Below, piece by piece: positions 1,144 to 17,637 of a DNA stretch of 17,637 nucleotides (positions are counted from its first letter, which is position 1; each line of letters starts with the position of its first letter). The notes under the pieces are model-generated. The model was not told the origin of the DNA. It was given only the letters and a program-made list of their open reading frames with translations, and ran no database searches. The position numbers were made by a program, and so were the translations under genes. The DNA comes from a virus (Duplodnaviria; Heunggongvirae; Uroviricota; Caudoviricetes): IMG/VR virus record IMGVR_UViG_2579778784_000009. One strand, given 5' to 3'.

Positions 1144-1369
1144 CAGCGATTATCCGTTGGAGTTTTGGGTTTGCGTTTATTGGGAGTTGCGGTTCTGCAA
1201 GCGTTCCTACAAAACGGGAATTTCGGTCAATCATCCAGTAGCGACCAACTTTTATAGCGGGTGGGGCCATCATTTTCCCTTGCGCGTATTTTTTCAGAAC
1301 TCGCTCACTTGGTGCTAAGTCCCCAAATTCTTCTTTAGCCCAGTCCTGTAAAGTGATTAGTCGAGACAT
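1133..1369 (-). CDS. xis: Excisionase (Xis-like)
   Basis: 78 aa, ATG at 1369 preceded by GAGGAGG. ITLQDW...APPAIKVGRYW resembles lambda Xis LTLQEW...PPPVKDGREY. Sits immediately upstream of int with overlap. Confidence 0.75.
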   Translation of the reverse strand: MSRLITLQDWAKEEFGDLAPSERVLKKYAQGKMMAPPAIKVGRYWMIDRNSRFVGTLAEPQLPINANPKLQRIIADGC

Positions 1370-1508
1370 TTGTCCTCCTCTTAGCTGCTGAGGGAGTTTG
1401 TGACCGATATATCTGACATGATATTAAGCTCATGGCAGGTACATCTCTTGACTGGTCATAGAGATAAATTTAATGCTGAGAAATGCAGTATTGAATTTAT
1501 CAATTTTT

Positions 1509-1748
1509 CTATTTCCTGCGTATGGCACGTAACTTCTTAATGTGTTCTGCCGTTTCGATCTCTTCTGCTATCCGATCTGCATCAGCTTTATTCACAGGTT
1601 CAAAGTCATGATTAAAGCGGAACATGCTGGCGATACATGTTCTGCCTTTTCGGATGTAGTGAACTTTGTTGTGGGTAGAACGCAGGATTTTGCAGGGAGT
1701 GCCGTGGTGGTCGACGTACCAGGTGTTAGGAAAAATGATTCTGAACAT
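1509..1748 (-). CDS. Hypothetical protein (79 aa), delayed-early region
   Basis: ATG at 1748 preceded by GAGGTG. Same strand as int/xis. No family recognised. Confidence 0.5.
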   Translation of the reverse strand: MFRIIFPNTWYVDHHGTPCKILRSTHNKVHYIRKGRTCIASMFRFNHDFEPVNKADADRIAEEIETAEHIKKLRAIRRK

Positions 1749-1795
1749 TTTTACACCTCAGTTGGACGATGTTGAAATTTGCTGCTTTGAGGCCA

Positions 1796-2014
1796 TCACA
1801 GTCCCCATTGTTTGTTCTTAAGTTCGATCTCCTCCTGGCAACTTGCACAAGTCCGACAACCCTGAACGGCCAGGCGTCTTCGTTCATCTATCGGATCGCC
1901 ACACTCACAACAATGAGTGGCAGATATAGCCTGGTGGTTCAGGCGGCGCATTTTTATTGCTGTGTTGCGCTGTAATTCTTCAATTTCTGATGCTGAATCA
2001 ATGATGTCTGCCAT
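1796..2014 (-). CDS. DksA/TraR-family C4 zinc-finger protein
   Basis: 72 aa with CxxC(17)CxxC (CCECGDPIDERRRLAVQGCRTCASC), typical of phage TraR-like proteins. Confidence 0.7.
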   Translation of the reverse strand: MADIIDSASEIEELQRNTAIKMRRLNHQAISATHCCECGDPIDERRRLAVQGCRTCASCQEEIELKNKQWGL

Positions 2015-2063
2015 CTTTCATTAATCCCTGAATTGTTGGTTAATACGCTTGAGGGTGAATGCG

Positions 2064-2090
2064 AATAATAAAAAAGGAGCCTGTAGCTCC
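2064..2090 (-). terminator. Putative intrinsic terminator in the leftward operon
   Basis: Hairpin GGAGC-CTGTA-GCTCC at 2076-2090. The plus-strand A-run at 2067-2075 becomes a U-run after the hairpin on the minus strand. Confidence 0.4.
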
Positions 2091-2112
2091 ATGATGATTT
2101 TGTTTTTCATGT

Positions 2113-2328
2113 TCACCGTTCCTTAAAGACGCCGTTTAACATGCCGATCGCCAGGCTTAAATGAGTCGGTGTGAATCCCATCAGCGTTACCGTTTCGCGG
2201 TGCTTCTTCAGTACGCTACGGCAAATGTCATCGACGTTTTTATCCGGAAACTGCTGTCTGGCTTTTTTGATTTCATAATTAGCCTGACGGGCAATACTGC
2301 GAAGGGCGTTTTCTTGCTGAGGTGTCAT
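2113..2328 (-). CDS. Hypothetical protein (71 aa from ATG 2328; ORF extends to 2394)
   Basis: ORF with two in-frame ATGs (2394, 2328). Start is uncertain and no family is recognised. Confidence 0.45.
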   Translation of the reverse strand: MTPQQENALRSIARQANYEIKKARQQFPDKNVDDICRSVLKKHRETVTLMGFTPTHLSLAIGMLNGVFKER

Positions 2329-2404
2329 TGAACAAGTCCCATGTCGGCAAGCATAAGCACACAGAATATGAAGCCCGCTGCCAGAAAAATGCATTCAGTG
2401 GTTG

Positions 2405-2596
2405 TCATACCTGGTCTCTCTCATCTGCTTCTGCTTTCGCCACCATCATTTCCAGCTTTTGTGAAAGGGATGTGGCTAACGTATGAAATTCTTCGTCTGT
2501 TTCTACTGGTATTGGCACAAACCTGACTCCAATTTGAGCGAGGCTATGTGCCATCTCGATACTCGTTCTTAACTCAACGGGAGATGCTTTGTGCAT
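2405..2596 (-). CDS. Hypothetical protein (63 aa), at the lambda orf63 position
   Basis: ATG at 2596. Sits between the orf60a-like gene and the upstream small ORFs. No direct sequence recall. Confidence 0.5.
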   Translation of the reverse strand: MHKASPVELRTSIEMAHSLAQIGVRFVPIPVETDEEFHTLATSLSQKLEMMVAKAEADERDQV

Positions 2597-2757
2597 ACAG
2601 CCCCTCGTTTATTATTTATCTCCTCAGCCAGCCGCTGGGCTTTCAGTGGATTTTGGATAACAGAAAGGCCGGGAAATACCCAGCCTCGCTTTGTAACGGA
2701 GTAGACGAAAGTGATCGCGCCTACCCGGATATTATCGTGAGGATGCTTCATCGCCAT
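2569..2757 (-). CDS. Lambda orf60a-like small protein (62 aa)
   Basis: [30 protein letters not shown]... recalled as lambda orf60a. Lies immediately upstream of exo, as in lambda. Confidence 0.55.
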
Positions 2758-3428
2758 TGCTCCCCAAATACAAAACCAATTTCAGCCAGTGCCACGTCCA
2801 TTTTTTCGATGAACTCCGGCACCATCTCGTCAAAATTCGCCATGTACTTTTCATTCCGCTCAATCACGACATAATGCAGGCCTTCACGCTTCATACGCGG
2901 GTCATAGTTGGCAAAGTACCAGGCATCTTTTCGCGTCACCCACATGCTGTACTGCACCTGGGCCATGTAAGCCGATTTTATGGCCTCGAAACCACCGAGC
3001 CGGAACTTCATGAAATCCCGGGAGGTAAACGGGCATTTCAGTTCAAGGCCGTTGCCGTCACTGCATAAACCATCGGGAGAGCAGGCGGTGCGCATACTTT
3101 CGTCGCGATAGATGATCGGGGATTCAGTAACATTCACGCCGGAAGTGAATTCAAACAGGGTTCTGGCGTCGTTCTCGTACTGTTTTCCCCAGGCCAGCGC
3201 CTTAGCATTAACTTCCGGAGCCACACCGGTGCAAACCTCAGCCAGCAGGGTGTGGAAGTAGGACATTTTCATGTCAGGCCACTTCTTTCCTGAGCGGGGC
3301 TTTGCTATCACGTTGTGAACTTCTGAAGCGGTGATGACGCCGAGCCGTAATTTGTGCCATGCATCATCCCCCTGTTCGACAGCTCTCACGTCGATCCCGG
3401 TACGCTGCAGGATAATGTCCGGTGTCAT
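2748..3428 (-). CDS. exo: Lambda exonuclease (Red alpha)
   Basis: 226 aa; [54 protein letters not shown]... is essentially lambda Exo by recall. Confidence 0.95.
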
Positions 3429-4210
3429 GCTGCCACCTTCTGCTCAGTGGCTTTCTGTTTCAGGAATCCAAGAGCTTTCACTGCTTCGGCCTGTGTCAGT
3501 TCTGACGATGCGCGAATGTCGCGGCGAAATATCTGGGAACAGAGCGGCAATAAGTCGTCATCCCATGTTTTATCCAGGGCGATCAGCAGAGTGTTAATCT
3601 CCTGCATGGTTTCATCGTTAACCGGAGTGATGTCGCGTTCTGGCTGACGTTCTGCAGTGTATGCAGTATTTTCGACAATGCGCTCGGCTTCATCCTTGTC
3701 ATAGATACCAGCAAATCCGAAGGCCAGACGGGCACACTGAATCATGGCTTTATGCCGTAACATCCGTTTGGGATGCGACTGCCACGGCCCCGTGATTTCT
3801 CTGCCTTCGCGAGTTTTGAATGGTTCGCGGCGGCATTCATCCATCCATTCGGTAACGCAGATCGGATGATTACGGTCCTTGCGGTAAATCCGGCATGTAC
3901 AGGATTCATTGTCCTGCTCAAAGTCCATGCCATCAAACTGCTGGTTTTCATTGATGATGCGGGACCAGCCATCAACGCCCACCACCGGAACGATGCCGTT
4001 CTGCTTATCAGGGAAGGCGTAAATTTCTTTCGTCCACGGATTAAGGCCGTACTGGTTGGCGACGATCAACAATGCGATGAACTGCGCATCGCTGGCATCA
4101 CCTTTAAATGCTGTCTGGCGAAGAGTGGTGATCAGTTCCTGTGGGTCGACAGAATCCATGCCGACACGTTCAGCCAGCTTCCCTGCCAGCGTTGCGAGTG
4201 CTGTACTCAT
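3425..4210 (-). CDS. bet: Single-strand annealing protein Bet (Red beta)
   Basis: 261 aa; [66 protein letters not shown]... matches lambda Bet. Overlaps the exo start. Confidence 0.95.
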
Positions 4211-4215
4211 CCGTT

Positions 4216-4512
4216 TTATACCTCTGAATCAATATCAACCTGATGGTGAGCAATGGTTTCAACCATGTACCGGATGTGTTCTGCCATGCGCTCCTGAAAC
4301 TCAACATCGTCATCAAACGCACGGGTAATGGCTTTTTTGCTGGCCCCGTGGCGTTGCAAATGATCGATGCATAGCGATTCAAACAGGTGCTGGGGCAGGC
4401 CTTTTTCCATGTCGTCTGCCAGTTCTGCCTCTTTCTCTTCACGGGCGATCTGCTGGTAGTGACGCACCCAGCTCTGAGCCTCAAGACGATCCTGAATGTA
4501 ATAAGCGTTCAT
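4216..4512 (-). CDS. gam: Host-nuclease (RecBCD) inhibitor Gam, short form
   Basis: 98 aa starting [15 protein letters not shown], equal to the GamS portion of lambda Gam. AGGAG RBS upstream of ATG 4512. Confidence 0.9.
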
Positions 4513-4586
4513 GGCTGAACTCCTGAAATAGCTGTGAAAATATCGCCCGCGAAATGCCAGGCTGATTAGGAAAACAGGAAAGGGGG

Positions 4587-4997
4587 TTAGTGATTCAGGC
4601 CGTTGCCGCGTCCGTCGAGAAAAACTTCCACGAGCAAGTCACGGGTATAAGTGCGCTCGATGCCGCGATGCAGATAAAGCCGTCCGCGTAAATTAGCTGA
4701 TGCAGTCCAGGTACCATCTTTGTGTTTGACCAGCATTCCTGGCATGACCGCACCGCGATTAACGGTCTGTGTTCCGTAATGTTGATGAACCATAAAAACT
4801 CCTGCCCGTAAGCTGGGCTGCTGAACATATAGAGACTTCTGCGCGTATTCAGGCGGTGGATGGCCGCCGGTTGTCATAACTAAACCGCCTCGTTGAAGCG
4901 ACTGAGGTATGAAATGTTGAGTTAATTTCAGCTGGTCACACCGACGTTCACGCGTCCGTTTCACCCCTCGCACTCCCCGAAGCCTGCTGAAATTCAA
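4587..4997 (-). CDS. Hypothetical protein at the first position of the pL operon; start uncertain
   Basis: 136-aa ORF whose track start is TTG. Internal ATGs at 4877 (GAGG upstream) and 4793 (GGAG 5 nt upstream). Arg-rich N-terminal stretch ([15 protein letters not shown]). Confidence 0.35.
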
Positions 4998-5065
4998 ACT
5001 GCGGATCTAAGCGGTCATCGCAACGGTGAATCAGGTGGTTGCCGTATCGTTGTGTTGTTGCGATA

Positions 5066-5127
5066 TGGTGATAATAGCTATTGCTATTGGTGATATCAAT
5101 ACTTATTGCTATTGGTTGATGTGTTTT
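5066..5127 (-). promoter_or_regulatory. OL/pL-like leftward promoter with operator repeats
   Basis: Minus strand -35 TTGATA (plus 5094-5099), 17-nt spacer, -10 TATTAT (plus 5071-5076). TTGCTATTGG repeated at 5081-5090 and 5106-5115; the same 9-mer recurs in the cI-cro intergenic region. Confidence 0.55.
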
Positions 5128-5242
5128 GATATTAAATGTTTGATAGCAAAAAGAATTAATTTTGTGACTTGCATCGCATAGCGATAACTGAAGGGAGGAT
5201 GTGGTGGTTTTTCGAACGGTTTGTGTGATGAGGGGACAAAAG

Positions 5243-5268
5243 AAAACCCGGCACGGTGGCCGGGATTC
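5243..5268 (-). terminator. Putative intrinsic terminator ending the cI passenger operon
   Basis: Hairpin CCCGGC-ACGGTG-GCCGGG (5247-5264), followed on the minus strand by UUUUCUUUUG. Lies directly 3' of the ASCH gene stop. Confidence 0.5.
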
Positions 5269-5646
5269 TTACGCAGGTAGGTAAAGATATGATTGTGGTG
5301 GCTTAATATTACTACCTAGAGCAGAGATAGGAATTGGTTCTTTATATCTTTCCACTTCACCAATTTTTATTGCGTAGGCCTTTTCTCTACCTGAATAATA
5401 TGAGTCATAAAATTGCTTAGAAATACCTGCGTGCTTTTCCGTCTTTTTCCAAAGAGATTCCGGTTCGTCACTTAGTATTGATTCAATACGGAATTGACCA
5501 ACAACTTTACCTAATGGCATCGTGGCATAAATAACAACGGTGCTAATTTGCGGATTTTTGAATATACCTTTACGAAACTCGAACCGCTTTGTTCCGTTCA
5601 ATATTTTTTCTGCAAACTCAGGCTTAATGGATAATAAAACTTTCAT
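5269..5646 (-). CDS. ASCH-domain (PUA-like fold) protein, 125 aa
   Basis: N-terminus MKVLLSIKPEFAEKILNGTKRFEFRK fits the ASCH pattern. AT-rich. Overlaps the 3' end of the upstream gene by 23 nt. Confidence 0.7.
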   Translation of the reverse strand: MKVLLSIKPEFAEKILNGTKRFEFRKGIFKNPQISTVVIYATMPLGKVVGQFRIESILSDEPESLWKKTEKHAGISKQFYDSYYSGREKAYAIKIGEVERYKEPIPISALGSNIKPPQSYLYLPA

Positions 5647-6685
5647 TTATCTTGCCTAACTCGATGATCTTTAAGAACTGCTCATTTGTGAGTTTAAAGT
5701 GACTCCATCGGAATGCACGCGAACCATTTAGCCCCACATGATCTATTAAAATAGCACGATTGGGTCTCTTTGGCAAAGACAGATTGTATGTGAATCTTAT
5801 AATGAAAGGGTATCGACGTTCTTTATAGATTTTTCTGAGTTCATCTTCAGAAAATACGCTAAAACGAATACAATAGTCTACAAAACTATCTTCGCTTAAA
5901 AATTCAGAAATATTTTTTACGCTCTCAACTACACATAATGTACTGGCTACAGAACGATAGCGAGCTGGCCCTTTTTTGTCTCCGGTTCTATAGATGACAA
6001 TGATATCTCCTCTTTTCATTCCCATCACAGAACGCATTCCACATATGTAAATTTTATGAATGCTGTTAGCATGGGATATATCTTTGACAATATCTGGTGA
6101 TTCATTTACAAGTTTTGAATCAGGGAATAGTCTAGTGTGATATTCGGGATAAATCGCCAGTAAATATTTGTTGGCCCTTGATGTCATTATTCGAGGGTAA
6201 TCTAATAAAATATCACCATAAGGCTCATGCAAAGACCTCGCATATACAAACTCTTTCCCGTTATGTGTTTCTTTTTCACCATGAATGTAAAATCCGTACG
6301 TTTGGAAAAGTTTTATTAGATGGACGTGTTTGTCGAAAACAGTAACATAAATATCATCAGATTTTGATGAAAATGCATGGTCAAACGCTTTTTTTAGAAA
6401 TCGTTGTCCGCGAAGGGTGCCTTTAGATTCAAATTTGAATGTTCCTATCTTTAGATGACGTCCTGGTGGGAGCGCTGGATTAATGTCATTTGCATCATCA
6501 TTTTCTTTTAGATACATAAAACCTTCGATTTTATGCTTGTCATCATAGAGCACATAAGCTGATTCTCCTTCTCTGGCTTTTTTTTCTAACCAAAGAGGAA
6601 ACTCTTTATAATCTTTTTTTAAAGAGTCAAAAAATGGGTCATTGTGATCAAAATCAGAGAATTTCTCATATTTTAAAGTATCCAT
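5624..6685 (-). CDS. Uncharacterised protein (353 aa from ATG 6685; ORF extends to 6697) with GNAT-like N-terminal features
   Basis: Long AT-rich ORF. GGAG lies 6 nt before the second ATG. N-terminal half has the GNAT-like motif FQTYGFYIHGE. C-terminal half is unassigned. Confidence 0.7.
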   Translation of the reverse strand: MDTLKYEKFSDFDHNDPFFDSLKKDYKEFPLWLEKKAREGESAYVLYDDKHKIEGFMYLKENDDANDINPALPPGRHLKIGTFKFESKGTLRGQRFLKKAFDHAFSSKSDDIYVTVFDKHVHLIKLFQTYGFYIHGEKETHNGKEFVYARSLHEPYGDILLDYPRIMTSRANKYLLAIYPEYHTRLFPDSKLVNESPDIVKDISHANSIHKIYICGMRSVMGMKRGDIIVIYRTGDKKGPARYRSVASTLCVVESVKNISEFLSEDSFVDYCIRFSVFSEDELRKIYKERRYPFIIRFTYNLSLPKRPNRAILIDHVGLNGSRAFRWSHFKLTNEQFLKIIELGKINESFIIH

Positions 6686-6765
6686 TAAGTTCTCCATTCT
6701 AAAATGAATAATTAAGTTGTTTTACTGAATGAGCACAATGCCCGGTTGATAATTTTTAATTGGTA

Positions 6766-7458
6766 CTATCCATGCTTCCTATACGTCTGCGGCATGCTCC
6801 CAATAACTTTCCCGAAGATAAATACCCGGTTCATCTCATCTTTCTCGATCGGGTCCCACGGTGAGTAGCTTTTGTTATCAGAGATAACCAGCAGCTTATC
6901 CTTCATCATTTGCAGGCGCTTTACATGGGCTGTGTCGTCGTACAGAAACGCATAGATACCATCACCGTCGAAAGATTTAACCGTGATATCAACGAATAGA
7001 AGATCACCAGGTTCAATCGTTCCTGACATGCTGTCACCGCGTACGTTAATGATGCGGATATTTTCTGCCTTCCTACCATCGAACATGTGACGAGCATCGT
7101 CAAACGAGTACTCAACCGAGCGTAGAACTTCTACAAACTCACGGTTGATGACTCCCGGCCCGGCACTCACTTCTATATCAAGAACGTCAATTTTAAAGTA
7201 TTTGGAATAGCTGACAGCAGGCTTCCCTGATTGTTGACCGTCATTTCTCATCGGGCCTATGCCTGATGAGAGCCATTCTGTTCGAACACCCAATGCATTA
7301 GCTATTTCAACAATTTTTGTTGAGCCGCGCGCGTTGCCGCTTGTCAGTCTCCAGATTGTGGGTTGAGCTACGCCAGACGCCTTTGCAAGAGCGCCTTGAG
7401 ACATTCCAGATTGTTCCATCGCTAGGTTTAAGCGATCAGCAAGAGTTTCTTTTTTCAT
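6766..7458 (-). CDS. cI: CI-type prophage repressor (HTH plus S24 LexA-like peptidase domain)
   Basis: N-terminal HTH (SQGALAKASGVAQPTIWRL) and C-terminal VRGDSMSGTIEPGDLLFVD...VKRL (Ser/Lys dyad). Track start at 7494 is TTG. ATG at 7458 has no RBS and lies about 10 nt from a TATAAA, so the mRNA is probably leaderless like lambda cI from pRM. Confidence 0.85.
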   Translation of the reverse strand: MKKETLADRLNLAMEQSGMSQGALAKASGVAQPTIWRLTSGNARGSTKIVEIANALGVRTEWLSSGIGPMRNDGQQSGKPAVSYSKYFKIDVLDIEVSAGPGVINREFVEVLRSVEYSFDDARHMFDGRKAENIRIINVRGDSMSGTIEPGDLLFVDITVKSFDGDGIYAFLYDDTAHVKRLQMMKDKLLVISDNKSYSPWDPIEKDEMNRVFIFGKVIGSMPQTYRKHG

Positions 7459-7568
7459 AAGTTTTAATTTATACGCTTGCGTATTGATGGTCAAAACACG
7501 TTTTGCTATTGCTTGGATTAATACGCATTGCTATTATTTATTCATTGCAATACCAATAGGAATTGATA
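7459..7568. promoter_or_regulatory. OR-like divergent control region (pR, pRM, operators)
   Basis: Plus strand pR: -35 TTGCTT (7509-7514), 17-nt spacer, -10 TATTAT (7532-7537). TTGCTATTG at 7503, TTGCTATTA at 7528, related CATTGCAATA at 7544. Lies between divergent cI and cro. Confidence 0.6.
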
Positions 7569-7796
7569 ATGACAAATCAAACCATTCAACTCGCAATCAG
7601 TATTACAGGTAGTCAAAAACGACTGGCAGATCTATGCGGTGTAGCCCAACCCACAGTTTGGCGTTGGCTACACGGTGGCGGAATTGATGCCCGCTATGTA
7701 ATGAAAATTGTCTCAGCCACTGGTGGAAAGATTAAACCAGCAGATATTCGTCCCGACCTCGCACCATTGTTTAACGCGAGTAATTCTGCCGCCTAA
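7569..7796 (+). CDS. cro: Cro-like HTH regulator (YdaS-like)
   Basis: 75 aa from ATG 7569 with AGGA RBS. HTH motif SQKRLADLCGVAQPTVWRWL. First gene of the rightward operon, divergent from cI. Confidence 0.75.
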   Translation: MTNQTIQLAISITGSQKRLADLCGVAQPTVWRWLHGGGIDARYVMKIVSATGGKIKPADIRPDLAPLFNASNSAA

Positions 7797-7820
7797 ACTG
7801 CGGCGTTAACTGATAAGGCA

Positions 7821-8366
7821 ATGACTATGCAACCACTTACATACCAACAGACTAGCGGATTTAGCCCGACTGCGGTGATAAATCGTTCTCAAACAAAACA
7901 GGCGCCAGGCCACGAAAAAATCCGTGATGCCGTTCGCGCCTGGTCGGCTGCAGATAATCAGGATGTTGTTGCCGCACTCATTGTGAATGAGTATCGGGAG
8001 CAGGGCGGCGGCACCATCGATTTCCCTGATGATGTCAGCCGTGCACGCCAGAAGCTGTTCCGCTTTCTCGATAACAAATTCGATTCTGAAAAATACCGAA
8101 ATAACGTGCGTGAACTGACCCCGGCAATTCTGGCGGTACTACCGCTGGAATATCGCGGCCACCTGGTTGAGCAGGATAGCTACATGGCTCGGCTGGCTGA
8201 AATGGAAAAGGAACTCAGTGAGGCAAAACAGGCTGTCATTCTCAACGCACCACGCCACCAGAAACTGAAGGAGATGAGTGAAGGCATTGTGTCGATGTTT
8301 CGTGTGGACCCGGATCTGGCTGGTCCATTGATGGCGATGGTCACCACCATGCTGGGGGCAATATGA
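7821..8366 (+). CDS. YdaT-family protein (CII-position regulator)
   Basis: 181 aa with AAGG RBS. IVNEYREQGGG and LTPAILAVLPLEYRGHL resemble Rac YdaT by recall. Sits between cro and O. Confidence 0.65.
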   Translation: MTMQPLTYQQTSGFSPTAVINRSQTKQAPGHEKIRDAVRAWSAADNQDVVAALIVNEYREQGGGTIDFPDDVSRARQKLFRFLDNKFDSEKYRNNVRELTPAILAVLPLEYRGHLVEQDSYMARLAEMEKELSEAKQAVILNAPRHQKLKEMSEGIVSMFRVDPDLAGPLMAMVTTMLGAI

Positions 8367-8452
8367 CAGGTTCAGAAATGGCGAAAGCCGGTCTGCGCGA
8401 ACAGAACCGACTTTCAGGTGCAAATCGTAACACACTCATTGCGGGAGGAATT

Positions 8453-9382
8453 ATGGCAAACACTGCTGAGATATTCAATTTTCCAGTGCCGGATGTGGCA
8501 CAAAAGGAGCCGCGCGTGGCAGATCTCGATGATGGTTATACGCGCATTGCAAATGAGTTGCTGGAAGCTGTGATGCTGGCCGGATTAACACAGCACCAGC
8601 TTCTGGTCTTCCTGGCTGTCATGCGCAAAACATATGGCTTTAATAAAAAACTGGATTGGGTGAGCAACGAGCAACTTTCCGAGTTGACCGGGATATTGCC
8701 GCACAAGTGTTCTGCTGCAAAAAGTGTTCTGGTAAAGCGTGGGATTTTTATTCAGAGCGGGCGGAATATCGGCATTAATAATGTGGTCAGTGAATGGTCA
8801 ACATTACCCGAATCAGGTAAGAAAAATAAAGTTTACCTGAAAGAGGTAAATTTACCTGAATCAGGTAAGAAAAGTTTACCCAAATCAGGTAAAGACGTTT
8901 ACCCGAATCAGGTAAACACAAAAGACAAACTAACAAAAGACAATATAAAACCTTTTTCGTCCGAGAATTCTGGCGAATCCTCTGACCAGCCAGAAAACGA
9001 TCTTCCTGTGGTGAAACCGGATGCTGCAATTCAGAGCGGCAGCAAGTGGGGGACAGCAGAAGACCTGACCGCCGCAGAGTGGATGTTTGACATGGTGAAG
9101 ACCATCGCGCCATCAGCCAGAAAACCGAATTTTGCAGGGTGGGCCAACGACATCCGCCTGATGCGTGAGCGTGACGGGCGTAACCATCGCGACATGTGCG
9201 TTCTGTTCCGCTGGGCCTGCCAGGACAACTTCTGGTCCGGTAACGTGCTGAGTCCAGCAAAACTCCGCGACAAGTGGACTCAGCTCGAAATTAACCGCAA
9301 CAAGCAACAGGCTGGTGTGACTGCCAGCAAACCAAAACTCGACCTGACAAACACTGACTGGATTTACGGGGTGGAGCTATGA
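8453..9382 (+). CDS. O: Replication initiator O
   Basis: From ATG 8453 (GGGAGG RBS): MANTAEIFNFPV...ADLDDGYTRIANELLEA parallels the lambda O N-terminus. Contains the iteron array. Stop overlaps the P start (ATGA). Confidence 0.9.
   Translation: MANTAEIFNFPVPDVAQKEPRVADLDDGYTRIANELLEAVMLAGLTQHQLLVFLAVMRKTYGFNKKLDWVSNEQLSELTGILPHKCSAAKSVLVKRGIFIQSGRNIGINNVVSEWSTLPESGKKNKVYLKEVNLPESGKKSLPKSGKDVYPNQVNTKDKLTKDNIKPFSSENSGESSDQPENDLPVVKPDAAIQSGSKWGTAEDLTAAEWMFDMVKTIAPSARKPNFAGWANDIRLMRERDGRNHRDMCVLFRWACQDNFWSGNVLSPAKLRDKWTQLEINRNKQQAGVTASKPKLDLTNTDWIYGVEL
8804..8952 (+). repeat. Replication origin: five palindromic iterons plus an AT-rich tract inside O
   Basis: TTACC(C/T)(G/A)AATCAGGTAA-type 17-mers at 8804, 8833 (degenerate), 8852, 8876 and 8899, followed by an A-rich segment at 8916-8952. 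Confidence 0.8.
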
Positions 9383-10092
9383 AAAATATTGCCGCGCAGA
9401 TGATTAACTTTGACCGTGAGCAGATGCGTCGAATCGCCAACAACATGCCGGAACAATACGACGAAAAGCCGCAGGTGCAGCAGGTGGCGCAGATCATCAA
9501 CGGTGTGTTCAGCCAGCTGCTTGCGACATTTCCGGCAAGCCTCGCGAACCGCGACCAGAACGAGCTGAACGAAATCCGCCGTCAGTGGGTTATGGCTTTC
9601 CGTGAAAATGGAATTACCACTATGGAGCAGGTTAACGCCGGAATGCGCGTGGCCCGCCGACAGGAGCGACCATTCCTGCCGTCGCCCGGCCAGTTCGTAG
9701 CGTGGTGTAAGCAGAGTGGCGGGGCGTTAGGTATCACTGTTGACCAAGTCATAACCGAATACTGGGATTGGCGTAATCGTTCCTTCGAATTCACTTCCAG
9801 CGAGCATTTCCCGTGGTCACAGCCTGTCATGTACCACATCTGCGTCGAACTGCGCCACCGCAGCACAGAGCGCCAGTTAACGCATGGTGAGCTGGCGCGT
9901 GAAGCCGGCGATCTGCTGGACATGTGGGAGAGGCGCGTCACCGAGGGCAAACCAGTACCGCCTGTGCGCCGGGCGATTGCAGCACCGGCTGCCGAGCATG
10001 GCCCGACGCCAATCCAGCTGCTTCAGGCGAAGTACAACCGCAACAAGTCGAACGGGATGGTGCGAAGTGGTAAAGAAGATAATAAAGAATAA
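9379..10092 (+). CDS. P: Replication protein P (helicase loader) with divergent C-terminal half
   Basis: The first ~110 aa (MKNIAAQMINFDREQMRRIANNMPEQYDEKPQVQQVAQIING...) are near-identical to lambda P by recall; the C-terminal half differs. Confidence 0.85.
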   Translation: MKNIAAQMINFDREQMRRIANNMPEQYDEKPQVQQVAQIINGVFSQLLATFPASLANRDQNELNEIRRQWVMAFRENGITTMEQVNAGMRVARRQERPFLPSPGQFVAWCKQSGGALGITVDQVITEYWDWRNRSFEFTSSEHFPWSQPVMYHICVELRHRSTERQLTHGELAREAGDLLDMWERRVTEGKPVPPVRRAIAAPAAEHGPTPIQLLQAKYNRNKSNGMVRSGKEDNKE

Positions 10093-10170
10093 TATTTAGG
10101 GTTATAGGTCTTAGCCCATTTTAAATGGAAGGCAGACATGCAGCCATGCATACTTCGCATGGCAACATAA

Positions 10171-10599
10171 TTATTTAGACAAACTATCTAATTTTTGCGT
10201 CGCTTTTTGTGTTAGGTCGCTGTAACTGATAAACCCTACGTTAGCACCTACAATTAACACTAAGAACACTAAGCTGCATATGGATAGAGTGGCAGATTTA
10301 TGCTTATGGAAAACAAAATATGCTACTATTGCACTTAATATGAAGGAAATGAATAGAAATATAGATGTTGATGTTTTTAGATATTTTTCAGGAAATAATG
10401 GGTGAGCAATAATGTATACAAGATTAAGTAGTATATAAATTGCTACCGGAATGAAAATCATGCTCCAGTGTGTATCTTTTTTGGGAGGGATTGGCTGCAA
10501 ATAATCAGACACCGTTTTTCCATCAGTTTCAAGAAGAATTACTAGATCTCTTACTTCACCACTGACTTGAGTGCCATCCTTAGTAGTAATGTTAATCAT
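10171..10599 (-). CDS. Small membrane protein (142 aa from ATG 10599), three predicted TM helices
   Basis: GGAGGG RBS 5 nt upstream of the ATG. Hydrophobic segments IFIPVAIYILLNLVYIIA, IFLFISFILSAIVAYFVF and LSICSLVFLVLIVGANVGFI. Very AT-rich. ATGA overlap with the upstream gene. Confidence 0.6.
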   Translation of the reverse strand: MINITTKDGTQVSGEVRDLVILLETDGKTVSDYLQPIPPKKDTHWSMIFIPVAIYILLNLVYIIAHPLFPEKYLKTSTSIFLFISFILSAIVAYFVFHKHKSATLSICSLVFLVLIVGANVGFISYSDLTQKATQKLDSLSK

Positions 10600-10973
10600 T
10601 TTTTCCCTCCAAATACGATTCCCTCTACGTCTTTGGAAGCTTTTTGTGATGACCACTCCTCTGAATCAGGTGATTTAATTAAAAATATTGTATCTCCATC
10701 AAAAATCGTATTTGTTCCGTAAAAATTTACATTTGATAGATCACCACCAAAAACCCTCTGCCCACTCGAGGTAATTGCCTCACCTAATTTAGTAAAATTA
10801 CCTGCAATAGATGATTTTCTTTTTCCACTTCTATTCAAAGTGGCTTTAATTACACCACCACCATCCTTAGAGTTAAATAATTGAATGTCCACTCCAGCAG
10901 TTGGTTGTATATATTTTGAAAGCTCTTTCTTGAACTTGTTAATATATTTATCTTTGTTTTCTTTGTTGGTCAT
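10596..10973 (-). CDS. Hypothetical Lys/Gly-rich soluble protein (125 aa)
   Basis: ATG at 10973. Translationally coupled to the membrane protein gene. AT-rich, antisense to the early-right operon. Confidence 0.6.
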   Translation of the reverse strand: MTNKENKDKYINKFKKELSKYIQPTAGVDIQLFNSKDGGGVIKATLNRSGKRKSSIAGNFTKLGEAITSSGQRVFGGDLSNVNFYGTNTIFDGDTIFLIKSPDSEEWSSQKASKDVEGIVFGGKK

Positions 10974-11240
10974 TGGTTAGATCCATAGTTCTGGCTGTGA
11001 TTAGGTGAAAGTATACAAGGTTTTTAAAGCGAAGATCACTGTTTTGGCTTCAAGATAGTTTTGATTTATCGTAATCAATCCGCCATAATCCTCTCATCGG
11101 AGCCTGAACAACTCCGGTGACTTCTGCGCATTTAAGGGGACTTAAATGCGACCACAATCTGAACTCATCACCTTGTCACAGATGCAGAAATGCACCTGCG
11201 ATGTCTTGCATCCAGCGTTTGATCTCTGCGGAGGTGAAGC

Positions 11241-11696
11241 GTGAACCTCCCACAAGATGGCATCAAATTACATCGCGGTAACTTCACCGCTGTCGGTCAG
11301 CAGATCCAGACTTATCTGGAAGACGGCAAATGCTTTCGCATGGTGCTTAAACCGTGGCGCGAGAGACGCAGTCTTTCCCAGAATGCACTCAGCCACATGT
11401 GGTACAGCGAAATCAGTGAATACCTCATCAGCAGGGGTAAAACGTTCGCCACTCCAGCTTGGGTAAAAGATGCTCTCAAACACACATATCTCGGTTATGA
11501 AACCAAAGACCTGGTTGATGTCGTAACCGGTGATATCACCACTATCCAGTCGTTACGCCATACCTCCGATCTTGATACCGGAGAGATGTATGTCTTCCTG
11601 TGTAAGGTTGAAGCCTGGGCGGTGAATATTGGCTGCCACCTGACTATTCCGCAGAGCTGCGAGTTCCAGCTGCTCCGCGACAAGCAGGAGGCGTAA
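11241..11696 (+). CDS. ninB: NinB-family recombination protein
   Basis: 151 aa from GTG 11241 with [25 protein letters not shown] resembles the NinB core motif. Confidence 0.7.
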
Positions 11697-11866
11697 TGGC
11701 TACACCGCTTATTCGTGTCATGAACGGACACATCTACAGAGTATCAAATCGTCGTAAGCGTAAGCCTGAGCTGAAGCCATCCGAAATACCAACACTGCTC
11801 GGATATACCGCCAGCCTGGTTGATAAAAAATGGTTGCGACTGGCAGCAAGGAGGAGTCATGGCTGA
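11696..11866 (+). CDS. ninE: NinE-like small basic protein (56 aa)
   Basis: Sub-threshold ORF not in the track. ATG overlaps the ninB stop (TAATG). Basic, with KKWLRLAARR near the C-terminus. Sits at the DLP12 ninE position. Confidence 0.4.
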   Translation: MATPLIRVMNGHIYRVSNRRKRKPELKPSEIPTLLGYTASLVDKKWLRLAARRSHG

Positions 11867-12149
11867 TTTGAGAAAAGCAGCGCGTGGTCGGGAATGCCAG
11901 GTAAGAATCCCTGGCGTATGTAATGGCAACCCTGAAACGTCTGTACTGGCACATATCCGGCTGACTGGATTGTGCGGCACCGGTACCAAACCGCCAGACC
12001 TGATTGCCACCATTGCATGTTCTGCCTGCCACGACGAAATCGACCGCCGCACACATTTTGTCGATGCTGCATATGCAAAAGAATGCGCGCTGGAAGGTAT
12101 GGCGAGAACACAGGTTATGTGGCTGAAAGAGGGGGTTATTAAGGCGTGA
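11859..12149 (+). CDS. ybcO: YbcO-like (DUF1364) putative nuclease
   Basis: 96 aa from ATG 11859 with [44 protein letters not shown]... recalled as DLP12 YbcO. Confidence 0.7.
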
Positions 12150-12508
12150 ATACCTACAGCATCACATTACCCTGGCCTCCGAGCAATAATCGCTATTACC
12201 GCCATAATCGCGGGCGCACGCACGTCAGCGCAGAGGGGCAGGCATACCGCGATAACGTCGCCCGAATCATTAAAAACGCAATGCTGGATATCGGCCTGGC
12301 TATGCCTGTGAAAATCCGCATTGAGTGCCACATGCCGGATCGCCGTCGCCGTGACCTGGATAATCTGCAAAAAGCCGCTTTTGACGCACTCACTAAAGCA
12401 GGTTTCTGGCTGGATGATGCTCAGGTCGTTGATTACCGCGTTGTGAAGATGCCTGTTACCAAAGGTGGGAGGCTGGAACTGACCATCACCGAAATGGGGA
12501 ATGAATGA
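12146..12508 (+). CDS. rusA: Holliday-junction resolvase RusA
   Basis: 120 aa; [37 protein letters not shown]... matches E. coli RusA by recall. Confidence 0.9.
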
Positions 12509-12645
12509 TGTTTGAGTTTAATATGGCAGAACTTCTTCGCCACCGCTGGGGGCGTCTGCGCTTATATCGTTTCCCCGGTTCTGTTTTGACCGATTACCGA
12601 ATACTGAAGAATTACGCCAAAACCCTGACAGGAACAGGAGTATGA
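12505..12645 (+). CDS. ylcG: YlcG-like small protein (46 aa)
   Basis: Sub-threshold ORF, ATG overlapping the rusA stop (ATGATG). Sits at the DLP12 ylcG position between rusA and Q. Confidence 0.45.
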
Positions 12646-12730
12646 AGTCAGAGATAACAATCAACTAATACTGTTTTGTTGATTTTTGCTTGTAATTGGC
12701 GTTCTGGTCTGATTTTTGTGGAGTAAGTTG

Positions 12731-13114
12731 ATGCGTGATATTCAGATGGTTCTTGAGCGTTGGGGTGCGTGGGCGGCTAATAATCATGAAGATGTGACCT
12801 GGTCGTCCATTGCCGCCGGTTTTAAGGGATTAATTCCTTCAAAAGTAAAATCTCGCCCGCAATGTTGTGACGATGACGCGATGATCATTTGCGGGTGCAT
12901 GGCCCGTCTGAAAAAGAACAACAGCGATTTACACGATTTATTAGTAGATTATTATGTATGTGGTATGACATTCATGTCACTGGCAAGTAAGCATTGCTGC
13001 TCGGATGGTTATATCGGGAAAAGGTTACAGAAGGCTGAGGGCATAATTGAAGGGATGTTAATGGCATTAGATATCCGGTTAGATATGGATATCGTTGCTA
13101 ATAATTCTAATTGA
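12731..13114 (+). CDS. Q: Late-gene antiterminator Q (QuuD / phage 82-21 type)
   Basis: From ATG 12731 with [41 protein letters not shown]... recalled as DLP12 QuuD. Confidence 0.85.
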
Positions 13115-13251
13115 TATGCAATTGTTTACTAAAAGTTATTAAAAATGGGGCGTGGAAACGCCCCCAAAATAAAGGGTAATATATAACAGAAGGTTTATAT
13201 AGTAAGAAGCAAGGTAGTGCTTCTAAAGGAAGTGGCTTGAGGGCTCCACTT

Positions 13252-13291
13252 ATATGTTGCGGAGGCAAAGCCTCCCGCAACATATCTTTTT
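13252..13291 (+). terminator. Intrinsic terminator downstream of Q (tR'-like)
   Basis: Long hairpin ATATGTTGCGGAGG-CAAAG-CCTCCCGCAACATAT followed by CTTTTTC. Preceded by two smaller hairpins at 13148-13165 and 13207-13224. Confidence 0.6.
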
Positions 13292-13302
13292 CGTAAGTCA
13301 GA

Positions 13303-14385
13303 TTAGAACTGATAAACCAGACCTACAGCGACGATGTCGTCGGTATCAATACCAGCTGTTTTGGTAAACTTACTATCGTCAATTAAGTTGATTTTGTAAT
13401 CAACAAAAGTGGACATGTTTTTATTAAAGTAGTAAGTAGCACCGACATCGACATACTTGACTAAGTCTCGGTCACCATGAACACCAAGGTCTTTACCTTT
13501 TGACTGAAGGTAAGCAACAGATGGACGCAGACCGAAGTCAAACTGATATTGTGCTACTGCTTCAAAGTTTTGTGCTTTGTTTGCAATATGGTTATTACCA
13601 AAAACGGTCATATTCTGAGTTTCAGAATATGTGGTAGCCAGATAGATATTGTTCGCATCATATTTCAGGCCTGCAGCCCATACTTCCGCATTTTTGCCGG
13701 AGGCATTGAATTTGCTCTTACCATAGGCGACCTGACCGTCAGTGCGATCTGATTTAGCATAGGTTGCACCCACGCCGAATCCTTCATACTCATAAGTAGT
13801 GGAGAAACCGAAACCATCACCATTGGCTTCAGTTACGTCAGTGCGGTCATTTTTACCCTGATACTGAGCAGCAAAGTTCAGGCCATCGACCAGACCAAAG
13901 AAGTCGTTGTTACGATAAGTTGCAACACCAGTAGTGCGACCAGTCATGAACACATCTGTTTGGGTCCAGGTATCACCACCGAATTCTGGCAGAACGTCAG
14001 TCCACGCACCGATGTCGTATGCTACACCGTAGTTACGGCCGTAATCGATTGAGCCGTAATCACCAAATTTCAGGCCTGCAAATGCAAGACGGGTTTTGTC
14101 TTTGGAAGAACCTTGAGATTCAGCACGGTTGCCTTTGAATTCATATTCCCACTGACCGAAACCAGTCAGTTGATCGTTGATTTGGGTTTCACCTTTGAAG
14201 CCAAGACGGGCATAAGTAGTATCACCATCATCTGCATCATTAGAGGAGAAGTAGTGCTTGGCATTAACTTTCCCGTATAGATCCAGCTTGTTACTGTCTT
14301 TATTATAAATTTCAGCTGCCTGAGCAGACATCGCCATCAGTACTGATGCAGCTACAGCAGAAATTGCCACTGTTAATTTTTTCAT
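13303..14385 (-). CDS. nmpC: OmpC-family porin, NmpC/Lc type (phage-borne)
   Basis: Signal peptide [23 protein letters not shown], then [16 protein letters not shown]...VGLVYQF, a classic general porin. The track ORF has a spurious 20-aa N-terminal extension. Confidence 0.9.
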
Positions 14386-14811
14386 TGTACGCCCTTTTTT
14401 TGAACTATTATTAAAAAATGATGTCACTGCGCGATAAATATTCATCTAATCAATGTGATTATTTCAAGATGTAAGTTTTAGTTTCTCATTTAATTTGTGA
14501 AGTAGATCTCTATTTTTATCGGAACCTTTTCTATCTAATCCTATTCATGGCTCTTGTCTGAACAAAAATAAATCTATTAGCTAATTTATATTAATGGCAC
14601 TTATTTATAAGTGCTCTATAATTCTTTAGCTTAATTTAAACAAACTAAAAATAACATCGGAAATTATTAACTGGTTATTTGTTGAAGTTTTCTTATGCAT
14701 TTGTGGTGGTGTTTTGAACACTCGGTGGCATTCTCACAAATATCATTTAGTAGTTTACGTACGTAAAAAATTGGTTATGCTGTTAAGAGTGGTTACTTCG
14801 TCACACAGCTT

Positions 14812-14845
14812 AAACCCGCCGTCGAGCGGGTTTTTCCATTTTTTG
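14812..14845 (+). terminator. Intrinsic terminator upstream of the lysis genes
   Basis: AAACCCGC-CGTCGA-GCGGGTTT hairpin followed by TTTTTCCATTTTTTG, about 130 bp before the holin start. Confidence 0.6.
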
Positions 14846-14973
14846 AGTCTCGATATTAGCTGATAACCCAATACCTGAGTTATTCACTGACTCCGAATCT
14901 GTTACGTTTCTGCCTTTATTGCGATACGTAGTATCCCCTTAATTTACACCCGCTTTGTCTGCGAGGTGGGGTT

Positions 14974-15188
14974 ATGAAATCCATGGATAAGTTAACAACG
15001 GGTGTCGCCTATGGTACCTCAGCAGGTAGTGCCGGGTACTGGTTTTTACAGTTGCTCGATAAAGTCACGCCCTCACAGTGGGCGGCAATAGGTGTGCTGG
15101 GTAGCCTGGTATTTGGCCTGCTGACGTACCTGACAAACCTTTATTTCAAGATTAAAGAAGATAAGCGCAAGGCTGCGAGAGGTGAATA

Positions 15189-15189
<1 letters not shown>
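14974..15189 (+). CDS. S: Class II holin/antiholin, phage 21 S type (dual-start)
   Basis: 71 aa, MKSMDK dual-start motif, GAGGTGGGG RBS. Matches S21 by recall. Stop overlaps the endolysin ATG. Confidence 0.9.

Positions 15190-17637
<2,448 letters not shown>

Follow-up and report, generated by a model that had tools for sequence, protein, structure and literature searches.

The P gene in the early-right region of this lambdoid prophage is a natural chimera, generated by homologous exchange within a conserved RRQ-RPFLPSPGQFVAW block that joins a lambda-type N-terminal half to a phi80-type C-terminal half. Within the window (the whole stretch of DNA that was analyzed, 17,637 nucleotides), positions 7569-10092 of the plus strand hold four genes assigned by Pfam, namely a Cro-position YdaS-family gene, a CII-position YdaT-family gene, an O initiator and a P helicase loader, all found where a preliminary description of the region had placed them. 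We consider it very probable that the mosaic P is an old cassette allele in a pR-driven early-right operon and that it works by analogy with lambda. The region is an ordinary early-right (regulation and replication) operon of a lambda-like E. coli prophage, and its chimeric P is a tidy case of already-known phage mosaicism rather than a new system.

The lambda/phi80 junction within P

The gene for the P helicase loader (9379..10092, plus strand) matched Phage_lambda_P (PF06992) at 166.2 bits against a cut-off of 26, and the match spanned residues 38-195 of the protein and positions 1-161/162 of the profile. The protein was also assigned to phrog_109, 'P-like helicase loader', with an E value of 2e-88. 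P starts at 9379, in overlap with the stop of O at 9382 (ATGA), an arrangement found also in phi80, 4A7 and lambda; lambda P (PF06992; PDB 6BBM, 8V9T, 9OA1, 9OA2, 8V9S) thus has the same family and the same O-overlapping start position. The profile, the coupling to the O gene and the predicted fold of domain III all place the protein among the PF06992 loaders.

Pairwise alignment with lambda P revealed that divergence is not uniform along the protein. The identity is 96% over residues 1-110 and about 22% afterwards, with a sharp drop after residues 108-110 or thereabouts; by segment, it is 98% (residues 1-50), 95% (51-108), 14% (109-150), 31% (151-195) and 17% (196-237). The N-terminal 110 residues or so had been called near-identical to lambda P. 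This holds for the protein but not for the DNA, which is 12% diverged in the N-half: codons 1-94 show 97% amino-acid but 88% nucleotide identity, with a dS of 0.90 and a dN/dS of 0.015. In contrast, the N-half is only 64% identical to those of phi80 gp14, HK639 gp55 ('P-like helicase loader'), HK225 and mEp237 P. Codons 96-228 are 97% identical in amino acids and 88% in nucleotides to HK639 P and 94% identical in amino acids to phi80 gp14; the nucleotide identity of the C-half to phi80, HK639, HK225 and mEp237 is 86-87%. The description of the C-half as non-lambda is accurate insofar as its identity to lambda P is about 22%, but it belongs to the known phi80 gp14/HK639 type of loader.

The position of the crossover was estimated by the maximum chi-square method over 276 informative nucleotide sites. 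The best fit was at nt 9654-9657 (codon 92/93) with a chi2 of 150, a value reached by none of 1000 permutations. This breakpoint and the switch in the identity profile confirm that the suspected intragenic mosaic junction is real. The crossover block, as delimited by the chi-square breakpoint and the ends of megablast matches (9655..9707, plus strand), encodes RRQERPFLPSPGQFVAW, a sequence that both the lambda and the phi80 lineage have kept; the conserved RPFLPSPGQFVAW block is common to this P and lambda P. The block is near the boundary of lambda P domains II and III, so that the crossover is just ahead of domains III and IV.

An explanation without recombination is that the C-terminal half of P merely evolves faster and gives the appearance of a switch. 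The N-half of the P family is indeed more conserved than the C-half, with 64% and 24% identity, respectively, between lambda and phi80. However, the C-half of the window P is 94-97% identical to phi80/HK639 while its N-half is 97% identical to lambda, and rate variation alone is insufficient because the two halves show conflicting affinities; nor would it account for a breakpoint that permutation failed to reproduce. The three-way comparison among lambda, phi80/HK639 and the window P refutes this explanation, and we give it practically no credence.

Phage 4A7 (Bievrevirus) is 97.9% identical to the window over 4900-9707, a stretch that takes in a PDC-M11-like pair, the cI, cro, cII and O genes, and P up to codon 110. 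In a megablast of 7400-10200, all matches to lambda-type phages among those listed ended at 9707. This position was considered as the recent recombination point of the prophage and rejected, since the density of mismatches against 4A7 is up already from about nt 9100. There are only about 25 mismatches between roughly 5200 and 9100; the similarity decays from there and stops at 9707. The junction relevant to the recent history of the prophage is about 600 nt upstream of the P junction, near nt 9100 in O.

Regulators, initiator and origin upstream of P

The Cro-position regulator is a 75-aa protein of the YdaS/HTH family read from ATG 7569 (7569..7796, plus strand; ORF 7563). It matched YdaS_toxin (PF15943) at 54.5 bits, with a cut-off of 30, and phrog_35, 'transcriptional repressor', and it is 100% identical to 4A7 gp49, 57% to gp51, the Cro-position repressor of HK639, and 31% to Rac YdaS. 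The CII-position regulator is a 179-aa protein of the YdaT family read from ATG 7827 (7827..8366, plus strand; the 181-aa ORF opens at 7821). Its gene sits between the cro-like gene and O, that is, in the cII slot. It matched YdaT_toxin (PF06254) at 102 bits, with a cut-off of 21, and phrog_163, 'CII-like transcriptional activator'. Its identity is 67% to phi80 CII, 53% to HK639 gp52 and 35% over 96 aa to Rac YdaT; it gave no match to lambda CII and a weak one to the CP-933P YdaT structure 8bt1 (E 2e-4). The Pfam matches, both above cut-off, bear out the placement of YdaS- and YdaT-family proteins in the cro and cII positions. YdaT has been described as a POU-type HTH tetramer standing in for CII (PMC9986795), and proteins of both families at these positions are described elsewhere in the literature as Cro/CII equivalents. 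The Pfam names 'toxin YdaS/YdaT' are a likely annotation trap, yet the proteins occupy the cro and cII positions here.

The designation of these regulators as Rac-type is correct at the family level, but the proteins are closer to phi80 CII and HK639 gp51 than to their Rac counterparts. In Rac, ydaST is followed by ydaU and ydaV, replication genes that are unrelated to O and P, whereas O and P take the places of ydaU and ydaV in the window. No significant match to a RacR-like repressor was found in the region, and identities of 31% to YdaS and 35% to YdaT do not make it a member of the racR-ydaS-ydaT-ydaU-ydaV module. In phi80 itself, a YdaT-family CII precedes O/P-like genes. The view of the region as a hybrid of Rac-type regulators and lambda-type replication genes is a loose one, since the same cI-cro-cII-O block is present in isolated phages with a lambda-type P: 4A7, Lambda_4C10, Perceval, 1W, 3W and PhiR70_1 carry it at about 97-98% identity to the window, followed by a full lambda-type P and then ren.

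The YdaS-family gene in the cro slot is divergent from a cI-like gene across a control region of 110 bp (7459..7568), which is presumed to contain the OR operators and pRM/pR. The CI-like repressor (6766..7458, minus strand), with an HTH (HTH_3) and an S24 autopeptidase domain (Peptidase_S24, E 1.5e-18), is transcribed away from the early-right operon. It is 97% identical to 4A7 CI and 45% to HK639 CI, and RefSeq annotates a 230-aa form of it in E. coli 536. In the cI-cro intergenic region, a palindrome, ATACGCTTGCGTAT, spans 7471-7484 and recurs in part at 7517-7535 and 7543-7556; from their position, these sites are presumed to be operators. The minus strand carries a promoter-like TTGACC-17-TAAATT at 7494-7466. 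The CP-933P YdaT consensus TTGATTN6AATCAA has one exact copy (11061-11078), and a copy with a single mismatch is at the start of cro. Enrichment of this operator consensus was rejected, as 10 of 200 shuffles did as well as the 5 matches observed (1.8 expected); only the single exact copy stands out.

The O-type replication initiator (8453..9382, plus strand) matched Phage_rep_O (PF04492) at 116.4 bits, with a cut-off of 28.7. Its ORF is open from 8363, where RefSeq places the start of O. The likely start is ATG 8453, which has GGGAGGAATT upstream and aligns with the starts of lambda O and phi80 gp15. This O had been described as lambda-type, which is true of its C-terminal part, with 95% amino-acid identity to lambda O over the last 150 codons, but not of the whole protein, which is 68% identical over its full length and has different iterons. 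Its lambda-likeness is confined to the C-terminal half, and the N-domain accompanies five non-lambda iterons. The C-terminal tail is the lambda-type KPKLDLTNTDWIYGVEL, whereas P in phi80, HK639, HK225 and mEp237 is paired with the phi80-type initiator tail KPDLDFNNTDWAYGVIR.

A repeat search located the origin iterons within O (8804..8920) as five palindromic copies of about 17-19 bp, TTACCCGAATCAGGTAA, with a spacing of 19-29 bp. Every copy is an inverted repeat, and their sequence is not that of lambda, whose iteron PMC7466680 gives as ATCCCTCAAAACGAGGGA. An A-rich tract to their right (8918..8950), with the direct repeat ACAAAAGACAAACTA / ACAAAAGACAATATA at 8918-8947, is the presumed DNA-unwinding element, as the AT-rich region of ori-lambda has an analogous position (PMC7466680). 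A minus-strand pO-like promoter, TTGAAT-17-CATAAT, is at 8478-8450. Between cII and O there is a strong hairpin at about 8385-8417, which lacks a clear U-tract and has a fold z-score of only -1.6. A search of this interval for an oop/M3-like antisense RNA gave no alignment to phi80 M3 or lambda oop, and an Rfam scan of the whole window returned 0 families at the gathering threshold.

Age, spread and linkage of the chimeric allele

Both halves of P are at a dS of 0.7-0.9 and a dN/dS of 0.01-0.04 from their nearest references. The dS of the N-half is 0.90 against both lambda and 4A7; codons 96-228 have a dS of 0.72-0.77 and a dN/dS of 0.02-0.04 against phi80 and HK639. A recent lambda x phi80 cross is ruled out by such dS values on both halves. 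The P chimera is an old, selectively maintained allele.

At least 1000 public contigs carry the exact P protein, E. coli 536 among them, and its annotation there and elsewhere reads "replication protein P"; a 228-aa relative (P0069) was found on 932 contigs. The P gene was 100% identical in E. coli 536 and among all other genome matches listed; 38 of the 20,395 records examined had a best P-gene match of at least 99% identity. The chimeric P was absent from 50,697 phage records, where the best tblastn identity was 83%. The allele is common in E. coli prophages and absent from isolated phages. In loci L009, L012 and L013, this P DNA (94-100% identity) stands with different cI/cro alleles. In L011 and L043, where the similarity begins only at 8916, it follows other O N-domains, and in L012-L014 it has another P tail, the similarity running out at 9965 (codon 196), close to the border of domains III and IV. 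The P allele moves as a cassette between E. coli prophages with different immunity, origin types and P C-terminal tails. P-like proteins of roughly 150 aa without domains I and II also exist among the relatives of the chimera.

We examined the association between O tails and P halves in 162 loci, which were chosen by similarity to two queries rather than at random. In all 160 loci with a readable upstream tail, the type of the O C-tail matched that of the P N-half. This perfect association could come from linkage rather than functional constraint, because the two are physically adjacent. The type of the P C-half was uncoupled from that of the O tail and P N-half in nine loci (eight from IMG/VR and the window). 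A designed query for the reciprocal chimera, phi80-N/lambda-C, did not find it among its 80 best matches in IMG/VR, all of which were plain lambda-type P with 84-85% identity.

The prophage is lambdoid, and the icd-site prophage of E. coli 536 is a relative. The copy in the window has an IS100 in the lysis region, which may make the entire element defective although O and P are intact; the copy in E. coli 536 has an IS100 within the integrase. It could be proposed from these insertions that the chimeric P is a dead relic, an accidental fusion in a decaying cryptic prophage without loader activity. The stop codon of P has also been displaced by a downstream insertion, which added nine codons (RSGKEDNKE and the stop, 10066..10092, plus strand, from the protein alignment) to give a C-terminal extension that the window P has and lambda P does not. 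We attribute the extension to this insertion because the stop codon of phi80 and HK639 (10065) is where blastn similarity to them ends and a low-GC insert begins; the GC content falls to 35-37% over 10001-11000. On the other hand, the reading frame of P is intact with its ATGA overlap onto O, the residues invariant in an alignment of eight P sequences (lambda P and phi80 gp14 included) are all retained, both halves have evolved at the low dN/dS given above, and identical or near-identical P is present on thousands of contigs with several different flanking modules. A relic is thus very unlikely, and the allele is better regarded as one maintained by selection.

DnaB contacts and the modular replication region

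Codons 1-92 of the window P (9379..9654, plus strand) correspond by identity to the lambda-type domains I and II (limits from PMC12661323), an N-terminal lasso and an oligomerizing domain to which O binding is classically assigned. Codons 111-228 (9708..10065, plus strand), on the basis of identity and an AF2 model, comprise a domain III and C-terminal lasso of the phi80 gp14/HK639 type, the lasso being GPTPIQLLQAKYNRNK. Domains III (about 120-192) and IV (193-233) of lambda P make DnaB contact sites iii and iv, and the principal contacts in cryo-EM are those of domain III at the CTD interfaces and of the C-terminal lasso at the DH-LH site (PMC12661323). The swapped part corresponds to these two domains, in agreement with the proposal that the replaced segment is the one that contacts DnaB.

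The P C-half is a divergent homologue of the same domain of lambda P. It matched the lambda P domain III chain 8v9s by HMMER (E 1.6e-7), and the AF2 model aligned to 8v9s over 70 columns with a target-normalized TM-score of 0.80 and an rmsd of 2.4 A, which indicates the same predicted domain III fold despite about 22% identity over residues 111-228. The confidence of the model is moderate, with a mean pLDDT of 64.6 and values of 76-83 in the domain III helices. Its best PDB matches were the lambda P chains in the DnaB complexes 9oa1 and 9oa2. A search of a literature library gave no description specific to this P chimera or to phi80 gp14 biochemistry.

The operon encodes in order a Cro-like repressor, a CII-like activator of the YdaT family, O with its own origin, and P. 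By analogy with lambda, from which all the protein-protein and protein-DNA contacts below are taken, we propose that the N-domain of O would bind the five iterons within its own gene and its lambda-type C-terminal tail would recruit P through the lambda-type N-half of the latter. The phi80-type domain III and C-terminal lasso would then grip and open the host DnaB, followed by its loading at the A-rich tract.

The preliminary description, whose interpretation of the region is partly supported, had further suggested that recombination gave the prophage a P that differs from lambda P in helicase loading. The difference could concern affinity for DnaB or allele specificity, dependence on chaperones, toxicity, or evasion of a factor that targets the C-half. 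The exchanged segment makes large DnaB interfaces in the lambda P-DnaB structures and is highly diverged from lambda P, and the lambda-N/phi80-C combination recurs while its reciprocal was not among the 80 best matches to the designed query. This absence, however, rests on those 80 matches from a single collection. Both types of C-half come from coliphages, belong to one Pfam family and have the same predicted domain III fold, and phi80-type phages grow on E. coli too, which gives no indication of changed loading. The strong purifying selection on an old chimera also argues against a recent innovation of the prophage. We consider this suggestion unlikely, and favor a mosaic loader that works by analogy with lambda. 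It is unlikely, too, that phi80-type domains III-IV with a lambda-type O-binding half make a loader that handles DnaB measurably differently. Possible differences would be in affinity, in dependence on DnaK/DnaJ/GrpE for release, in tolerance of dnaB (groP) alleles, or in going unrecognized by a host or prophage factor directed against lambda P. If true, altered DnaB handling would explain why lambda-N/phi80-C is common and its reciprocal unseen. The borders between functional modules of P-type loaders would then lie at the natural junctions, near codons 92-110 and 196.

Laboratory lambda-phi80 and lambda-82 hybrids were reportedly used by Furth, Dove, Blattner and colleagues in 1977-78 to map the specificity domains of O and P. 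The exchangeable units in such hybrids are the O N-domain with the origin, the O C-domain with the N-part of P, and the C-part of P with the host. The same units are exchanged here, but the chimera in the window is natural, old and widespread. While of little weight alone, the region shows the classical lambdoid replication module to be made of exchangeable units. Here these are an O N-domain and the iterons that go with it, an O tail and the matching P N-half, and the DnaB-binding half of P. The natural junctions in P are close to the domain borders in the 2025 cryo-EM structures of DnaB with lambda P, and the chimera and its relatives are ready-made constructs for dissecting O binding, oligomerization and the opening of DnaB by P.

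Layout of the immunity and replication region

Genes were identified by ORF listing and Pfam scans, and their function labels were cross-checked in PHROGs. The immunity and replication genes of the window are in the standard lambdoid layout. A CI-like repressor gene (6766-7458, minus strand; HTH_3 and Peptidase_S24) is separated by a 110-bp control region from the plus-strand gene of a 75-aa YdaS-family HTH protein (7569-7796), which is followed on the same strand by genes for a YdaT-family protein of 179 or 181 aa (7821 or 7827-8366), an O-type initiator (ending at 9382 and probably starting at 8453, within an ORF open from 8363) and, last, a P-type helicase loader (9379-10092). The PHROGs labels of the four plus-strand genes (transcriptional repressor, CII-like activator, replication initiation O-like and P-like helicase loader) all agree with the Pfam-based functions. 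Over nucleotides 614-15577 the window shares 99.97% identity with the prophage next to icd in E. coli 536, where the annotations of these four genes read HTH protein, YdaT domain protein, replication protein and replication protein P. The region is an ordinary lambdoid mosaic and its RefSeq annotation is already correct.

The preliminary description had placed YdaS-like and YdaT-like proteins of Rac type in the cro and cII positions. Pfam families and layout bear out both placements, and the 181-aa protein, a member of the YdaT family in Pfam, is 35% identical to Rac YdaT over 96 aa; the Cro-position protein is 31% identical to Rac YdaS. However, the annotated cII product of phi80 is 67% identical and HK639 gp52 53% identical to the CII-position protein, and HK639 gp51 is 57% identical to the Cro-position protein. 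Since these identities exceed those with Rac, the designation "Rac-type" is correct at the family level only. The CII-position protein showed no similarity to lambda CII; YdaT has been documented as functionally equivalent to CII in lambdoid prophages, and its "toxin" label is disputed (PMC9986795, PMC5917428, PMC8630535). The whole cI-cro-cII-O block occurs at ~97-98% identity in the isolated phages 4A7, Lambda_4C10, Perceval, 1W, 3W and PhiR70_1.

The operator consensus of CP-933P YdaT, TTGATTN6AATCAA, occurs without mismatch at 11061-11078, upstream of a ybcN/ninB-like gene, where it overlaps a promoter-like TTGATT-17-CATAAT; a one-mismatch copy (7563-7580) straddles the start codon of the cro-like gene. 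The five matches in the window, against 1.8 expected, are not significant, and the exact copy alone stands out. The same ybcN/ninB-like gene is also preceded by a conserved hairpin, GCATTTAAGGGGACTTAAATGC (11129-11150), which the phi80 annotation calls "IR4".

Several other features of the prophage were recorded. Downstream of cI, the rexA/rexB position (5269-6697, minus strand) holds genes for a 357-aa protein with an acetyltransferase-like N-part and a 125-aa partner with an ASCH domain. The pair matches the PADLOC candidate defence system PDC-M11 (PDC-M11A, E 2e-133; PDC-M11B, E 7e-52) and is also found in phage 4A7 and E. coli 536. A 380-aa ORF (13303-14445, minus strand), located between the Q-like antiterminator and lysis genes, corresponds to a prophage-borne porin annotated OmpC in the 536 copy. 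An IS100 of the IS21 family, whose istA and istB genes lie on the minus strand, has inserted in the lysis-gene region (15577-17637) and truncates the lysozyme gene. The window's integrase (1-1143) is intact, whereas in E. coli 536 IS100 sits inside the integrase; the differing positions indicate a source strain other than 536 and an independently placed IS100 copy.

A lambda-phi80 junction within P

Alignment with lambda P gives 98% identity for residues 1-50 of P and 95% for residues 51-108; past residue 108, identity falls to 14%, 31% and 17% in successive blocks. The trend is the opposite for phi80 gp14 and HK639 P, with 56% identity at the start and 86-100% thereafter. When window 7400-10200 was searched by megablast, the matches of lambda-type phages, among those listed, all stopped at 9707, and the 3' part of P beyond this point had DNA matches only to phi80, HK639, HK225 and mEp237 (86-87% identity). 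A maximum chi-square scan over 276 informative sites placed the switch between nt 9654 and 9657, at codon 92/93, with a chi2 of 150 that was reached in 0 of 1000 permutations. The crossover sits in a block encoding ARRQ-RPFLPSPGQFVAW; because this block is common to both lineages, the proteins diverge only from residue 111. Similarity to phi80 and HK639 stops at nt 10065, exactly their stop codon, where a low-GC insert starts, and P is nine residues longer. The conflicting similarity profiles and this endpoint therefore identify the "non-lambda C-terminal half" of the preliminary description as phi80 gp14 type. Its observation that P is near-identical to lambda P for about 110 residues and then diverges is confirmed, since pairwise alignment shows uneven divergence along P, and the proposed recombination junction is upheld by the scan. 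The near-identity holds for the protein but not for the DNA.

The low-GC insert (35-37%; 10093-11100) replaces ren between P and the ybcN/ninB-like gene, and its left edge is exactly the phi80/HK639 P stop codon. It contains two minus-strand ORFs, 10171-10656 and 10596-10973 (phrog_16940 and phrog_18061, function unassigned), one with a weak signal for a multi-pass membrane protein (7TMR-DISM_7TM, E 4e-4). PADLOC gave no matches in the insert.

Four domains were distinguished in lambda P by a 2025 structural study (cryo-EM and crystallography) of DnaB-lambda P: I (residues 1-29), an N-terminal lasso; II (~30-119), which forms a pentameric crown; III (~120-192), seated on DnaB CTD interfaces; and IV (193-233), a C-terminal lasso binding the DH-LH site (PMC12661323). 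The placement of domains III and IV agrees with the earlier statement that the C-terminal part of lambda P contacts DnaB. In older genetics, the N-terminal portion of P was credited with binding O and the C-terminal portion with interacting with the host (summary in PMC4926192). With these domain limits, the junction position indicates that the window's P combines lambda-type domains I and II with phi80-type domains III and IV. The C-half remains a homologue of the lambda domain, as it matches the domain III chain 8v9s by HMMER (E 1.6e-7). The AlphaFold model of P has a mean pLDDT of 64.6 (76-83 in the domain III helices); its best PDB matches are the lambda P chains of the DnaB complexes 9oa1 and 9oa2, and it superimposes on 8v9s with a target-normalised TM-score of 0.80 and an rmsd of 2.4 Å at 23% identity. 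This model, of moderate confidence, predicts a conserved domain III fold. The earlier interpretation is partly supported: the switch point is a real junction, and the change in helicase loading relative to lambda P that it proposes is conjectural.

The initiator and its pairing with P

The claim that O is lambda-type stands for its C-terminal 150 codons, which are 95% identical to lambda O in protein; overall identity is 68% and the iterons differ, so that O is itself mosaic relative to lambda. Five palindromic iterons, TTACCCGAATCAGGTAA, lie inside the O gene (8804-8920) and are followed by an A-rich repeat; the lambda iteron is ATCCCTCAAAACGAGGGA (PMC7466680). O probably starts at ATG 8453, because this codon is aligned with the lambda and phi80 starts and is preceded by GGGAGG. 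A possible oop/M3-like antisense unit lies between cII and O (8366-8478, minus strand). Its promoter resembles pO (TTGAAT-17-CATAAT, with TG) and its hairpin has a 14-bp stem; the stretch lacks a clear U-tract, has no Rfam match and folds with a z-score of only -1.6. It is overlain by the 30 codons that extend the annotated O ORF at its N-terminal end.

By analogy with lambda, O would bind the iterons and its tail would recruit P through domains I-II of P. Domains III-IV would bind DnaB and open it so that it can be loaded at the A-rich tract, and the Cro-like and CII-like proteins would run the lysis-lysogeny decision.

We classified 162 loci, namely lambda, phi80, HK639, 4A7, the window and 157 of 160 fetched IMG/VR loci; the upstream initiator tail was readable in 160. 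The last 17 residues of the initiator, KPKLDLTNTDWIYGV.. in the lambda form and KPDLDFNNTDWAY.V.. in the phi80 form, match the type of the P N-half in 160/160 loci, which were picked by similarity and in which O tail and P N-half are adjacent in DNA. The pairing holds even though phi80-type tails are joined to at least four different sequences directly upstream; one bearer, HK639 gp54, is otherwise unrelated to O. Within these two limits, the association is consistent with contact between the O tail and the P N-half. The C-half is uncoupled from the pairing, as nine classified loci (eight from IMG/VR and the window) carry a lambda-N/phi80-C P. A designed query for the reciprocal phi80-N/lambda-C P in IMG/VR returned only plain lambda-type P among its best 80 matches.

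P-like proteins of PPompW_EH2246 (L167 1896-3390) and Klebsiella Kp4865-4 (L168 ~1900-3390) align with the window's P only over its residues 101-228 or 101-229, at 50% and 43% identity, respectively. The annotated length for PPompW is 140 aa; both frames would start near P residue 80, for a length of roughly 150 aa. The initiators encoded upstream terminate in LDCTDWRDD (PPompW) and VDCPDWIDE (Kp4865-4), echoing the O tail LDLTNTDWIYGV. These short proteins suggest that the P C-half can act as a self-contained unit and that this type is a minimal loader comprising the end of domain II with domains III and IV.

Age, spread and exchange of the chimeric P

In DNA, P codons 1-94 share only 88% identity with lambda and 4A7 (dS 0.90, dN/dS 0.01), and codons 96-228 have dS 0.72-0.77 and dN/dS 0.02-0.04 against phi80 and HK639. 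These values on both halves indicate an old chimera under strong purifying selection; by dS, a recent lambda x phi80 cross is ruled out.

The identical 237-aa P is present in at least 1000 contigs in public data and a 228-aa relative, P0069, in 932. Among complete E. coli assemblies, 38 of 20,395 records have a best match of ≥99% identity to the P gene, which among the matches listed is full-length at 100%; a match over ≥80% of the gene was found in 186 genomes, a count that includes plain phi80-type genes at 81%. The chimera was found in 0 of 50,697 isolated-phage records, where tblastn identity peaked at 83% and the phi80-type phages account for the nine records between 80% and 90%. The chimeric allele is common in prophages and absent from sequenced isolated phages.

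The window and phage 4A7 differ by only ~25 mismatches over roughly nt 5200-9100, and mismatches rise to 6-18 per 100 nt from ~9100 to 9707. This rise puts the latest exchange boundary within the O C-terminal domain, at about nt 9100; to its right, the O tail and the entire chimeric P arrived as one piece. In IMG/VR loci the same P DNA (94-100% identity) is found beside other cI/cro alleles (L009, L012, L013), with other O N-domains (L011, L043; similarity begins at 8916, just right of the iterons) and with another P tail (L012-L014). In the last group similarity stops at 9965, which is P codon 196, near the domain III/IV border. P0069 carries this alternative tail, which resembles those of PPompW and Kp4865-4. 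A small point worth keeping is that natural P junctions lie close to structurally defined domain borders.
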